64,000 nt of DNA from Antedon mediterranea. Its lineage: Eukaryota > Animalia > Echinodermata. The stretch spans positions 3,348,001 to 3,412,000 of the forward strand of contig NC_092673.1 in assembly GCF_964355755.1 (NCBI RefSeq). Direction: 5' to 3'. Shown in pieces: positions 268-22,286 of this stretch (positions within the stretch are counted from its first letter, which is position 1; every line of letters begins with the position of its first letter). The notes under the pieces are model-generated. The model did not search any database. It saw only the letters and a list, made by a program, of their open reading frames with translations, and had not been told where the DNA came from. The position numbers and the translations under genes are program-made.

Positions 268-1151
268 ATGGGAAAGTGGCAACAGAGAGTGAGTAAAAAC
301 CATGGAGCTTGTTTTTCGATGCTAATTTAACCAGGGAGGTATCTCCTGCTATAGAACCAAGACGTTTTTTGAAAAATGAGATTTAATTGTAATAGTCTTG
401 GATTTTCGATCTAAAATTAAGATATTTATCCAATGAACTATATTGACTCATCATTGTTTGTGCTTTATTTTATCTTTATAAATTATATTTATTTTAATTT
501 AATTTTTATTGTTACATTTTTATGTCTTTTTTGTGTAGGTCCCTAATGATCAGCTTCGGCTGGATGGAACACCCTCGTAAAATATTGTTGAAATAAATAA
601 AATAAATTTTAAATTACTAAGCAAAGTTCATTTAGGGCATCTCAAATTCCGTTAGGATGTTGGTGGGCGAGTTTGTTTACCACGTAAAACAATTGTTTCT
701 TTTAGAGAAAAGGAAAGGGCTTGACACCATATCAAGGAAGGAAAAGAACGTTTGGAGAATTTCACTGCAAAGATTGCGATCGAACATGGTGTAGTTCTCA
801 TAGCTGGGCTGACAAGGGACAGAAATGTCAGACATGTGAAGTTAATGTCTATCCAACAAAACAGGTATGGTGAAATATAACTTCTGCTATAGGCCTATTA
901 TCATTAATATACTTAGTTTGTTTCCATTCCTTTTTCTGATATGATCTGTACAATAATATTGTAATTTGTACTGATCATAATCTAATAATAATTACTATTT
1001 AAATAACTTGTAGACTCCATTTTACTTGTAGACTCCATTGCAGAAGCCAGATGGACTGGATGAACATATAGATGTCAATAAACATCATCCCCAGGACCTG
1101 TGTGAAAGATGCAAGGAGCTTGGACGTTTCTGTGGAAGCCTAAGACGCTAA
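268..1151 (+). CDS. ZCCHC24-like 3CxxC-only protein, copy 1; exons 268-288 (MGKWQQR), 706-864, 1032-1151; no C-terminal tail
   Basis: Phase-0 GT/AG introns give [92 protein letters not shown], matching the remembered C-terminal 3CxxC domain of ZCCHC24. Exon 1 is less certain. Confidence 0.85.
535..606 (+). mobile_element. Possible short 3' remnant of a LINE in intron 1 of copy 1
   Basis: Small stem-loop CAGCTTCGGCTG followed by an (AAAT)n tail; no coding sequence. Confidence 0.3.
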
Positions 1152-2588
1152 TGACTTATCTGTTTTGTTGTGACTAATTGTCTCTTTAAAGACGACTTGC
1201 GTTGCCTCCAACATATTTAAAAGTATATATTATGGTATAGAGAGTATTACGAGAATAATAGGCCTATGATAAGATGAATTCACTTAACTATTACAAATTT
1301 TACCCAGACAGTTAGAACCATGGTGGTGGTGTTTAGAAGTCAATTTGTTACAATCTGTTGAGAATATTACTGTAAATGGTACAGAAGACGAAAATGGTAT
1401 TTGTAAGATCTTTGGAAGAAAGACAATATGCCCTAAATAATAACATTAGCTACAATAGTACAAGTTTGTCATAACCGATGCAGCGAAGTGTCCTCAATAA
1501 TGTGTAGATATGTCATGTAGTTAATTCAAGCATCCAGCACATGCACCTACCTTGGGCCAGGACGGACCAACATGTATATACACAGTATGCTATATTAATT
1601 GAATAAAACTCTGGCAAAATATTACTATTTTTATAATATATTCTGTATAAAAAAAAATCGCGCGGGTAGATGTTTGTAACAACAGTCTGGATCTCAGTGT
1701 TTGTCAGATGACAGCTTTTGCTTTTATTAAGCGTTAGGCCTAGGGTGTTTCTTTTCGAATACCTTATGAAAGTCTTTGGTCTGGTTTCTTCTTTTTGATT
1801 GATATCTGCTTAAGACAATTTTGAATCCCAGAATTCAATTGAGTATTAGCTTATGACTAATGTCGATTTGAAATTTTATTAATGATAATTTGCAACTTGG
1901 GAAAAACCCAAGCTGATGTGAAGTATTCATGCGAAACGATTTACATAATGAGAAACAGAAACCCTATGACGATACTGAAAGAAAGATTATATCTGATTAA
2001 CTGTATAAACATTCGTATCTAGTCAACATCAAGTAATATTCAATACAAACAAAACAATCATAATCCTCACTGATGGAAATTAATGATGATTATTACAAAT
2101 AATTATTATTATAAGCCTGACAGAGACTGACGTCATAAATTTAAATAACGTACGATATCTTGATGATGAACATGTACTGACAGTGGTGTGAACAGGATTC
2201 CTCCATATAACGGTCCTTTACCTTCATAACAGAATGTTAATCAACCAGATTTTGTTTATTATTTTGTTGTAGGCCTATTTTATTTGTTTTAACCAGGGAA
2301 GTTTCAACCAATAATCTTTAAATAAACACTTTAATTGCTGCAAATATACCATGTTATCACGTAAACGAAAACAAAACATTATTTCATGCATCATTGGTTA
2401 ATATGAATCTTATCAGTCTCGTATCTATTCAGATTATTCTGGAAAATCCAACTTTATGTTATGACGTTAAAAGAATGCAGAGTAGTCGCTAGCTAGTATC
2501 ATAATATATTGAGAGCTCGGAGCTGATGAGTTCGAAGCTTTTATTGTCTAGACTTCATTTGAAATAGTAGACCCATACAGAATACAGA

Positions 2589-3348
2589 ATGTTGTCTGCA
2601 GTTAAGAAGGTAAAGATCTATATAATAATTCTTGGTCCATAAGCTTACGATAACTCTTTTCAAAATAATTTAACTATTCAACATCGATTCAATTTAGACG
2701 GCCTAGATCAGGACTTGGGACGCACCCGGGGACGCACCTTCCACCATCAGTAACGTAGTACAAGAACGGTTCTGAAACTATTACATGCCTTTGCAAATTG
2801 TACATGAACATTTATGATGCAATTTGCATCCCATTTATTGATTATAATAATGTATTATTTAACATAATAGAAGCAAGGGTTGACGCCATACCAAGGCAGT
2901 GCGAGGAGGTTCGGTGAGTTTTACTGCAGTGGCTGTAAACGAAGTTGGTGCAGTGCTAATAGCTGGGCTAACAAGGGACAAGAATGCCAGAGATGTGGAG
3001 TTAATATTTATCCACATAAACAGGTATTGAATATAACAATATTATAGTCAGCGAAAGGCTTCCTAAATGTGGTTATGTTATCAAATTGTCTAATATATTG
3101 TTTTGACCACAGTGCTGATTCCCCACTATCCGGCCTGCCTATACTTTTTAAACAAAATATATCTTTTTTTGTAGACTCCATTAAAGAAACCAGACGGACT
3201 GGATAAATCCGACGTCAGTAAACAGCATCCTCAATATCTGTGTCAAAAATGCAAAGAGCTTGGATTCTATTGTAGAAATCTATCTAGTGGTTACGATTCC
3301 CAAGAAGACGATGAATTATCGTTTGAATTTGATAAATTAAAATTATAG
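2589..3348 (+). CDS. ZCCHC24-like 3CxxC-only protein, copy 2; exons 2589-2609 (MLSAVKK), 2871-3023, 3175-3348; short acidic tail
   Basis: [108 protein letters not shown]; intact frame with canonical splice sites. Confidence 0.88.
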
Positions 3349-3425
3349 ACACGGACGGAAAGAGAGATGCCATGGCGTAAATTAAAATAATGACACGATC
3401 GTAGGAGGTTGGGCTGATGTCATAA

Positions 3426-3583
3426 AGCTCTGTCTACACTATCAAACTAGTTTGAGAAAAAAAGTGTGACCTGCCCAAATATGGTAGTGATATGCCTAAT
3501 TATGGTAGTGATGACATCATCATTTCAATATGGGCACATCACATTTTTTTGTCACATAAAATTTGATAAGTGTAGACAAGGCT
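3426..3583. mobile_element. MITE family A (Harbinger/Tourist-like)
   Basis: TIR AGCTCTGTCTACACTATCAAA, TAA/TAA flanks and internal CCCAAATATGGTAGTGATATG repeats; about 17 full or partial copies in the window. Confidence 0.85.
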
Positions 3584-21107: not shown

Positions 21108-21184
21108 GATCCGTTTTTTAAAATGAAATCAATTTACCATTTTGCTACACATTATGGGAATCATGAATAACATGTCAGTGCGTT

Positions 21185-21266
21185 GGGATTTTCCACCGGA
21201 TTTCAAAAAATTAGTTTGAGTTCCTGTCCTGTGTGTGTGTACATGGTTACTTTTATAGCGCCCTCT
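21185..21266 (-). promoter_or_regulatory. Conserved promoter block of copy 7 (GGGATTTTCC, TTCCTGT, TAGCGCCCTCT)
   Basis: About 80 bp upstream of the ATG; paralogous to the blocks of copies 6 and 8. Confidence 0.55.
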
Positions 21267-21666
21267 CTGTCTGAGAAGTCGCGAAGTAATAACATTTAGA
21301 AGTTACATGACAATCGACAACGTTACATGAAATTTTTTATTGTTTTGAACGAATTTTTCTTGATATGATTGTAACATTTATACAAAATACATTTATATCT
21401 AAATAAAAAAACGAATAGTGTTCATTCGACTTTCATGCAAACTAATGTATTATTATACTGTCATAAAAACTCCAAACTTAGCTAATATAATGTTCTCTTG
21501 AAAACAACTGATAATTTTGCATCATTTTACAAACATTACAAATCGTTTAGTTTCTTAAAACCGTTGAAATATACAGCTTTTTGCGAGAAAATATTTGACT
21601 AAAATGTATATTTATTAAATTGCATTCAATCAATACTTTACAAGCCCGGATGTTCTTGTAAAACGT

Positions 21667-22286
21667 TTATACGTAAAGGCAATTGAATCTATCCAATAAG
21701 TCATCATCTTCATCGTCGTAACCATATCTTCTATCATATCTTCTAGGAGGACTACAATAATATCCAAGACGTTTGCATTTTTCACACAGGTGCTGAAGGT
21801 GACGTTTACTACTATCTATACCTTCATCCAGTCCATCAGGCTTCTCCAATGGCTCCTAAACCAATAATATACAACACATTAAAAAAAAATTATGGCAGTA
21901 TGTATAGTACTATGGCACAATGTAAATAAAGCTGTCAGGGCCCTCACATAGGCCTAAAAACATACCCCACGAAAATGTTCACACTTCCCGTACCTGTTTG
22001 CGTGGATAGACGTTCACTTTACATTTCGAACATTGTTGCCCCATGTTAGCCCAGCTATGTGCGCTGCACTGCACCACAAATGTTTGCAATTCTTGCAGTA
22101 ATATTCCCCAAACATCCTGTCCTCGCCTTGATAAGGTGTTAACTTTTTCTTCTTTTTCTATATATAAATAATGTTTATTATTATACAGCCGGACTTATCG
22201 ACCTTTACTTAATTTACAAAGGTTGTAAGCATGCTGTAATTTAAATGCAAAAATTATGAAAAAATTACCCTTCCACCACCTGGCAT
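21667..22286 (-). pseudogene. 3CxxC copy 8, frameshifted by a 5-bp duplication in exon 2; exons 22286-22269 (MPGGGR), 22157-21994, 21855-21667
   Basis: Exon 2 is 164 nt (159+5) because of CTGCA-CTGCA at 22064-22073. Removing one copy restores [17 protein letters not shown]; exon 3 is intact (..[13 protein letters not shown]). Confidence 0.8.

Follow-up and report, generated by a model that had tools for sequence, protein, structure and literature searches.

ZCCHC24 binds UGUWHWWA elements in 3' untranslated regions (UTRs) and stabilises the mRNAs that carry them (PMC11624195). The RTP proteins, RTP4 among them, use a 3CxxC-type domain as the whole working unit, vary in whether they carry a hydrophobic anchor, and have expanded locally in Xenopus, the nearest described precedent for the locus reported here (PMC8172065). 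In Shiftless, arginines of the zinc ribbon contact RNA, an export signal lies beside an acidic tail, and Cys112, Cys115, Cys132 and Cys135 are assigned to a single zinc site in a model of the protein that is itself predicted (PMC9604422). ZAR1, like ZCCHC24, is a regulator of host mRNA. Here we describe an array of ZCCHC24-type genes from the crinoid Antedon mediterranea that can be compared with all four. It lies on contig NC_092673.1 (assembly GCF_964355755.1), in a stretch of 64,000 nucleotides (nt) covering positions 3,348,001 to 3,412,000 of the forward strand; this stretch is called the window, and coordinates refer to it.

In six-frame scans of the window, nine core exons and seven tail exons came to light, all within the first 22.3 kb; beyond that, the scans gave no other core bearing the PYQG motif. 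The cores belong to eight genes on both strands, between 268 and 22286, and each runs from an AG acceptor to a phase-0 GT donor; the copy 8 core fits this pattern only once its 5-nt frameshift is allowed for. NCBI gene models agree with the predicted exons of copies 1, 2, 3, 5 and 6. The exon scans, the AG/GT boundaries, the Pfam matches and the NCBI models together bear out the original prediction of eight paralogs on both strands sharing a phase-0 intron, although that prediction had overlooked that copies 6 and 7 each have an additional coding exon as their second.

In the array we directly observed the genes, the splicing of copies 5-8, purifying selection and segregating null alleles. We read these as knuckle-less ZCCHC24-type genes that probably expanded in crinoids from an ancient short class and that may encode infection-induced, cytoplasmic RNA-binding restriction factors. 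We give this reading a probability of about one half. It ranks ahead of a role in host mRNA regulation, which is followed by decay of redundant duplicates and then by a decoy function.

Domain content and fold

All eight unbroken core exons tested passed the Pfam cut-off for PF17180 (33.8-69.2 bits against 27). The cut-off for PF23490 (ZCCHC24_C) was passed by five of six tail exons tested, the copy 4 tail scoring 20.2 bits against 27; in this tally copy 6 has no such tail and copy 3 is entered by precomputed label only. None of the eight core exons reached the cut-off of the RTP-family profile PF13695 (the highest score was 19.1 bits, the cut-off 23), and searches with the whole of copy 2 and of copy 6 did not list this profile at E 0.01. 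This check of the zinc-ribbon domain places the core exons in PF17180 rather than in the RTP type. The knuckle, PF13696, is absent from all five NCBI-modelled copies (1, 2, 3, 5 and 6), which for these five agrees with the earlier statement that no copy has a CCHC knuckle. The residues after YQG and around the first CxxC..W vary as had been listed. The knuckle-bearing ZCCHC24 of Antedon (P0096, 266 amino acids) is encoded on a 31.7-Mb contig, and the array lies on a contig of 36.19 Mb. Domain identity to this protein is 62-77% in six array copies, compared with 96-99% in eight other knuckle-bearing genes. The array has PF17180 and PF23490 in common with ZCCHC24, and three copies also have its LxxxFxxLxL motif; in contrast to ZCCHC24, it is multi-copy and fast-evolving, lacks the knuckle and the long N-terminus, and carries the motif after the domain rather than before the knuckle.

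The AlphaFold model of copy 2 (68 sequences) has a mean predicted local distance difference test score (pLDDT) of 80, with most of the domain above 90. Compared with the RNA-binding domain of ZAR1 (PDB 9jko), it gave a Z score of 9.4 and a root-mean-square deviation (rmsd) of 2.9 over 78 aligned residues (Foldseek E 4.4e-4), and a profile of the family finds ZAR1 by sequence (E 8.4e-6). ZAR1 is the best profile and structure match of the array domain, and the proposed link to its fold thus held up, on a predicted model. The extra cysteine-rich insert that ZAR1 carries between core and tail is absent from the array domain in the alignment of the two, and the array proteins lack ZAR1's long N-terminus. 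The name "ZAR1-like" that NCBI gives to copy 5 is at odds with its Pfam families.

Against Shiftless, the copy 2 model gave Z 4.7 and rmsd 3.8 over 70 aligned residues, ranking 2 of 764 chains (Foldseek E 0.047). Only copy 6 passed the Shiftless profile PF15135 (32 bits against 29.8), the single-core copies scoring 14-29 bits. Its match covers profile positions 110-186 of 271, or about 77 positions, and leaves out the N-terminal helical domain. Copy 6 aligns weakly to Shiftless residues 108-185, its first four cysteines falling on Cys112, 115, 132 and 135, and its model, which is of lower quality, has Shiftless as its best PDB match (E 2.3e-3). The core exon aligns to the zinc ribbons of Shiftless, copy 6 spans both of them, and a basic ribbon combined with an acidic tail and an export signal is a further likeness; the sequence-only match to the solved chain, however, is weak (E 0.35). 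Shiftless also came up in Atlas (0.80), a match to be taken as no more than a lead. A 3CxxC-type domain as the whole working unit and local expansion are what the array would share with the RTPs, and copy 3 ends in a hydrophobic stretch that recalls their variable membrane anchor. The RTPs differ in showing positive selection, of which none was found in the array, in their own domain profile, and in having been described from jawed vertebrates, whereas the array is from an echinoderm.

The core exon probably forms a self-contained four-cysteine ribbon, to which the tail would add a second, His-Cys3 site. By their full definitions, the array genes are neither RTP nor Shiftless genes, but they probably work with a related module. 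A search of viral structures gave no match at E 0.001, a PHROGs search gave none for copies 2 and 5, and a single-sequence PDB search returned chance matches only.

Splicing, alleles and selection

Five public runs cover the locus, none of them recorded as RNA. Run X1 was taken as RNA because all 13 listed joints are present in X1 and none in the DNA run X2. The splicing comparison covered 15485-22430 (copies 5-8), so that copies 1 and 2 lie outside it. X1 contains joints for all four introns of copy 6, along with one further variant of this gene, for all three introns of copy 7, with an alternative donor, and for both introns of copy 8, where the first joint falls within 2 nt of the predicted acceptor. 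In copy 5, loose contig ends coincide with exon 1 and with the start of the tail (contig depths of 99.7 and 135.3, which carry no ranking of expression). An X1 contig at 11170-11999, of depth 52.9, covers the tail and 3' region of copy 3, with no joint among those listed. The original prediction depended on these genes being spliced, and for copies 5-8 the RNA-type run shows that they are, with no such joints in X2. One X1 contig (18922-20048) takes in the copy 7 tail and 3' region and reaches as far as the first copy 6 donor, which suggests that copy 6 and copy 7 transcripts overlap or read through, a contig alone being no proof of a single transcript. A joint at 20000-21827, linking paralogues 7 and 8, was set aside as a likely assembly mix.

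Copies 3, 4, 6 and 8 had been thought damaged or rearranged. This stands for copy 4, in which one extra base in an A-run shifts the frame relative to the spacing of P0261 (13 residues before the His) and for which X1 cover is near background. It does not stand for copy 6, whose frame is open across five exons, and the lesions of copies 8 and 3 are missing from other alleles. The 5-nt frameshift of copy 8 belongs to the window allele: the letters at 22064 are omitted in X1 (depth 7.36 of 7.36) and in none of the DNA run X2 (0 of 11.1). At the second tail cysteine of copy 3 (11031) the window has Trp, whereas X1 reads Cys, as does some of the DNA depth. Copy 3 also has two residues fewer before the tail CxxC that holds the Trp/Cys site. 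The apparent damage is thus mostly polymorphism, and only copy 4 remains broken.

Among the variants listed, the X1 sequence of copy 5 differs from the window in 15 codons (11 non-synonymous, 4 synonymous), mostly in the acidic tail, and could represent either a divergent allele or a paralogue missing from the assembly. The X1 contig of copy 7 shows no difference from the window over 1367 nt. Allele divergence, again among the variants listed, is about 3% at 15917-17055 (the copy 5 tail and 3' region) in both X1 and the DNA run X5, and X5 has 11 differences over the 3983 nt of 18177-22159.

Site models were fitted to six copies and 86 codons, a sample of low power from which copy 4 and the two cores of copy 6 (6a and 6b) were left out. 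Omega, the ratio of non-synonymous to synonymous change (dN/dS), was 0.27 and differed from 1 (p 5e-12), and pairwise values, obtained for 31 of 36 pairs because the others were saturated, spanned 0.12-0.66. The array is under purifying selection, and neutral evolution, which had been named as an outcome that would speak against the family, was not found. The proposal of diversifying selection at the variable sites found no support: no positively selected class emerged (M1a/M2a p about 1; M7/M8 0.25; M8a/M8 0.33; low power). About 35% of sites fit omega 1 under M1a. At this low power, the variable sites fit relaxed constraint as well as they fit diversifying selection.

Gene layout, tails and upstream sites

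The features of the array are collected in Table 1. Tail swapping and exon doubling would be easy here because the core exon is phase 0-0, and the tails do differ. That of copy 2 is short and acidic, and its last residues form an export-signal-like LxxxFxxLxL; copy 5 has a long acidic tail with a similar motif at its end; copy 3 combines acidic repeats with a hydrophobic C-terminus (19-residue hydropathy 2.54), which could arise by chance from T-rich DNA. Copy 6 consists of two tandem cores and has no ZCCHC24_C tail. Copies 2, 5 and 8 and the Anneissia protein P0225 have an acidic LxxxFxxLx[LIV] motif at their very end (as do at most 0.0002 of shuffled tails), and in Anneissia P0045 the motif lies mid-tail. 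Of 141 knuckle-less proteins, 6 carry it after the domain, and these are all crinoid; of 127 knuckle-bearing proteins, 38 carry it before the knuckle. We take it to fit the class 1a CRM1 export consensus. Two of the X1 differences in copy 5 fall on hydrophobic positions of the motif, and both stay hydrophobic.

Table 1. Array genes, the interrupting element and upstream kappaB-like sites in the window.
Feature	Position	Strand	Parts	Size	Evidence or remark
Copy 1	268..1151	+	exons 268-288, 706-864, 1032-1151	99 aa	XP_071949024.1 = P0006
Copy 2	2589..3348	+	exons 2589-2609, 2871-3023, 3175-3348	115 aa	XP_071949025.1 = P0002
Copy 3	9994..11337	+	exons 9994-10014, 10323-10475, 10957-11337	184 aa	XP_071946973.1 = P0003
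Copy 4 (divergent)	12564..13378	-	core 13378-13220, tail 12807-12564 with extra partial ribbon		scans, Pfam, tree
Copy 5	15020..16266	+	exons 15020-15040, 15610-15762, 15919-16266	173 aa	XP_071946974.1 = P0001
Copy 6	17001..18933	-	exons 18933-18922, 18539-18438, 17998-17831, 17646-17479, 17054-17001	167 aa	XP_071946975.1, XP_071946976.1 = P0007
Copy 7	19899..21107	-	exons 21107-21087, 20549-20463, 20342-20190, 20048-19899; alternative donor near 20991		spliced joints in X1
Copy 8	21667..22286	-	exons 22286-22269, 22157-21994, 21855-21667		scans and X1 joints; tail ends in export-signal-like motif
Broken LINE (endonuclease, reverse transcriptase)	4394..10270	-	element ~4690-9974 between direct repeats 4394-4689 and 9975-10270	repeats 296 nt	repeats 99% identical
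kappaB-like site, 1 mismatch	165..175	-			94-103 nt before copy 1 ATG
kappaB-like site, 1 mismatch	2441..2450	-			about 140 nt before copy 2 ATG
Exact kappaB consensus GGGATTTTCC	19034..19043	+			101 nt before copy 6 ATG
Exact kappaB consensus GGGATTTTCC	21185..21194	+			78 nt before copy 7 ATG
Two kappaB-like sites	22422..22442	+			136-156 nt before copy 8 ATG, in gap with Abraxas
aa, amino acids; LINE, long interspersed nuclear element.

The NF-kappaB consensus is GGGRNWYYCC, and kappaB-like letters also fit NFAT-type sites. The 64 kb contain three exact matches, of which two precede copies 6 and 7. With at most one mismatch, the consensus lies within 250 nt of the ATG in five of the seven genes with a known first exon, compared with 0.105-0.11 of background windows; when copies 6-8 are counted once, it is found in three of five independent units (p 0.011). 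The kappaB-like site is the longest identical run in the aligned upstream regions of copies 6, 7 and 8, and it may lie in the 5' UTR, as X1 cover at 21227 suggests for the site of copy 7. ISRE-like (interferon-stimulated response element) patterns showed no concentration upstream of the ATGs. A motif chosen post hoc, GGAAAAWCC (nine matches, all in the first 22.5 kb, 0.97 expected), was replaced by this test of an a-priori consensus. The third exact site, a palindrome at 50313-50323, lies outside the array.

Copy 3 is parted from its earlier upstream region by the flanking duplication of a LINE of about 5.3 kb. Each of the flanking repeats contains copy 3 exon 1, so that this exon has a duplicate at 4413-4433. 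Target-site duplications are usually 7-20 nt long, and these repeats far exceed them. Another LINE-like 3' end, a short one, is found at about 4255-4393. The first exon of copy 4 was looked for and not found. Its tail holds a third partial ribbon (12567-12700), and the ENA protein P0261 has the same layout and an acidic tail, which suggests a distinct subfamily. The interval 22286-27912 holds an Abraxas (FAM175) gene (PF21125, + strand) that stands head to head with copy 8. The gap between them contains a CRE-like (cAMP response element) sequence, TGACGTCA, and a piece of the gap is retained upstream of copies 6 and 7. A tandem repeat with a 60-nt unit, in about 20 copies (25792-27000), begins at an Abraxas exon end and repeats its donor site.

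Age, induction and rival explanations

A full HMMER scan returned 927 clusters at 50% identity, and 11 of 20 cluster representatives looked up had names. Knuckle-less named proteins of 85-139 amino acids come from Halichondria, Geodia, Mnemiopsis, Actinia, Cloeon, Artemia, Halotydeus, Strigamia, Manduca, Cydia, Pararge, Eretmocerus, Oratosquilla, Branchiostoma, Anneissia, Gonium and Willaertia. The short form thus ranges over sponges, a ctenophore, an anemone, arthropods, amphioxus, green algae and a heterolobosean; some of these proteins may be partial gene models, and the Branchiostoma and Cydia forms recur across species. Short genes are grouped on one contig in Actinia (2), Halotydeus (3), Anneissia (2) and Priapulus (3, including the canonical gene), and doubled cores also occur in Holothuria and Priapulus. 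In Priapulus, P0004, P0009 and P0127 lie on a single contig of 145,723 nt, where short and doubled-core copies are 85-88% identical to the canonical ZCCHC24 beside them; short forms can therefore also arise afresh from the canonical gene.

In a careful tree (45 rows, 82 columns; cores 6a and 6b left out), copies 1, 2, 3, 5, 7 and 8 form a clade with one Anneissia protein (support 97/89). Copy 4 pairs with P0261 (98/89), and its joining the array clade was rejected (approximately unbiased test, p-AU 0.006; long branch), which assigns it to a different, older branch. In a quick tree, core 6a grouped with copy 8 and core 6b sat on an unplaced long branch. Branch lengths are 0-0.03 for knuckle-bearing genes and 0.09-0.44 for the array. 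The array is placed apart from the knuckle-bearing genes, yet joining the two, as the proposed descent from ZCCHC24 would have it, was not rejected (p-AU 0.27; 82 columns). By sequence and tree, the expansion is crinoid and the short gene type is old and widespread. The earlier description of a lineage-specific family is therefore right about the expansion but not about stand-alone short genes, which occur widely in animals and also in green algae and Willaertia.

Induction has been reported in Nematostella. NVE13026, annotated as ZCCHC24-like, rose by log2 5.81 (about 56-fold) 24 h after polyinosinic:polycytidylic acid, or poly(I:C) (adjusted p 3.7e-88), and by 3.55 at 48 h (PMC8476169). PMC11251625 repeats these values from the same data and is not independent. 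A ZCCHC24-named gene, ID 5521864, responded to 2'3'-cyclic GMP-AMP (cGAMP) with log2 3.96 in polyps (about 16-fold) and 2.29 in embryos (PMC8713801). For NVE13026, BLAST labels give an indication of form. Its top BLAST label points to an Anopheles protein, and the knuckle is missing from the Anopheles sinensis match as well as from both Actinia proteins; NVE13026 is therefore likely a short form without a knuckle. No ZCCHC24-type name occurs in the challenge supplements of PMC7064767 (oyster), PMC13319465 (Nematostella) or PMC10917227 (Drosophila), where identifiers may differ.

If the array is an inducible defence family, signalling by double-stranded RNA or cGAMP would turn the genes on via Rel-family sites near the first exon. 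The basic domain, made of the four-cysteine ribbon and the His-Cys3 site, would then bind viral or translating RNA, by analogy with the RTP4 3CxxC domain and the Shiftless ribbon, and the C-terminal LxxxFxxLx[LV] would serve as an export signal that keeps copies 2, 5 and 8 in the cytoplasm. The copies would diversify mainly through modular tails and exon doubling, and not through positively selected point changes; the modules would be acidic tails, the membrane-anchor-like end of copy 3 and the double ribbon of copy 6.

Several results weigh against this reading. The nearest relative by sequence (ZCCHC24) and by structure (ZAR1) are both host mRNA regulators. The Shiftless score of Z 4.7 is within the range of common arrangements, the copy 6 match to Shiftless has rmsd 12.5 on a model of pLDDT 65, the cores score below the RTP-family cut-off, and the codon models yielded no positive class. 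Neither copy 3 nor copy 5, whose X1 contigs are the deepest, has a kappaB match. In Nematostella, 1,379 of 18,831 genes rise with poly(I:C) (PMC8476169), and ID 5521864 has a mean count of 31 in a cGAMP sheet of 6,394 rows (PMC8713801). According to the latter source, antiviral genes are induced without dependence on NF-kappaB, and no ZCCHC24-named gene appears by name in its 379-row NF-kappaB knockdown sheet. NVE13026 and ID 5521864 are possibly two genes.

The array proteins could instead regulate host mRNA in the manner of ZCCHC24 and ZAR1, being inducible or tissue-specific and binding 3' UTRs in oogenesis, stress or regeneration, with no direct antiviral action. We hold this to be possible but less probable than defence. 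It would account for the kinship with ZCCHC24 and its UGUWHWWA site (PMC11624195), for the ZAR1 RNA-binding domain as the best match, and for purifying selection without a positive class. One short form falls within a single 90% cluster across three Branchiostoma species, and the LxxxFxxLxL motif is common to canonical ZCCHC24, which also fits this role. It sits less well with the upstream kappaB-like sites and with a Nematostella homologue that two immune stimuli induce strongly. Nor does the array resemble the near-invariant canonical gene: it has duplicated locally more than once, has diverged fast and carries segregating nulls.

It is unlikely that the array is a set of redundant duplicates drifting under relaxed constraint, produced when one short ancestral gene next to Abraxas was copied again and again in repeat-rich DNA, with most of the duplicates now being lost. 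Null alleles in copies 8, 3 and 4, the LINE inside copy 3 and the share of sites at omega 1 point that way, but omega differs from 1 overall and is below 1 in every measurable pair, the clade is common to Anneissia, all four copies compared with RNA are spliced, and the export-like motif keeps its hydrophobic residues where alleles differ. Less probable still is that the proteins compete with canonical ZCCHC24, the induced knuckle-less domains displacing it and so altering mRNA stability in an immune or stress response. The array does keep the RNA-binding domain without knuckle and N-terminus, and the Priapulus copies resemble the canonical gene on their contig closely; short forms are nevertheless present in sponges, an anemone and green algae, where no knuckle-bearing gene was found among the best matches listed, and every copy departs from the canonical gene in its surface residues.

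A wider and more tentative version of the defence reading, which we rather doubt, is that the knuckle-less ribbon of 90 residues is a eukaryote-wide, virus-induced RNA-binding effector older than interferon and the shared building block of ZCCHC24, ZAR1, the RTPs and Shiftless. The crinoid array would then replay this history in 22 kb, with ribbon doubling as in Shiftless and gain of an anchor as in RTP4. In the literature on ZCCHC24, 3CxxC, Shiftless and ZAR1, no title or abstract opening among those listed mentioned a knuckle-less class or a Shiftless-ZAR1 link, most subscription papers being outside this search. Invertebrate effectors against RNA viruses are little known. If the defence reading is true, hundreds of short "ZCCHC24-like" proteins would make up a separate inducible defence class, and RTP4 and Shiftless would gain a common ancient module. 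The array would also offer small natural variants, with a single ribbon, a double ribbon, an anchored end or null alleles, for restriction and frameshift assays.

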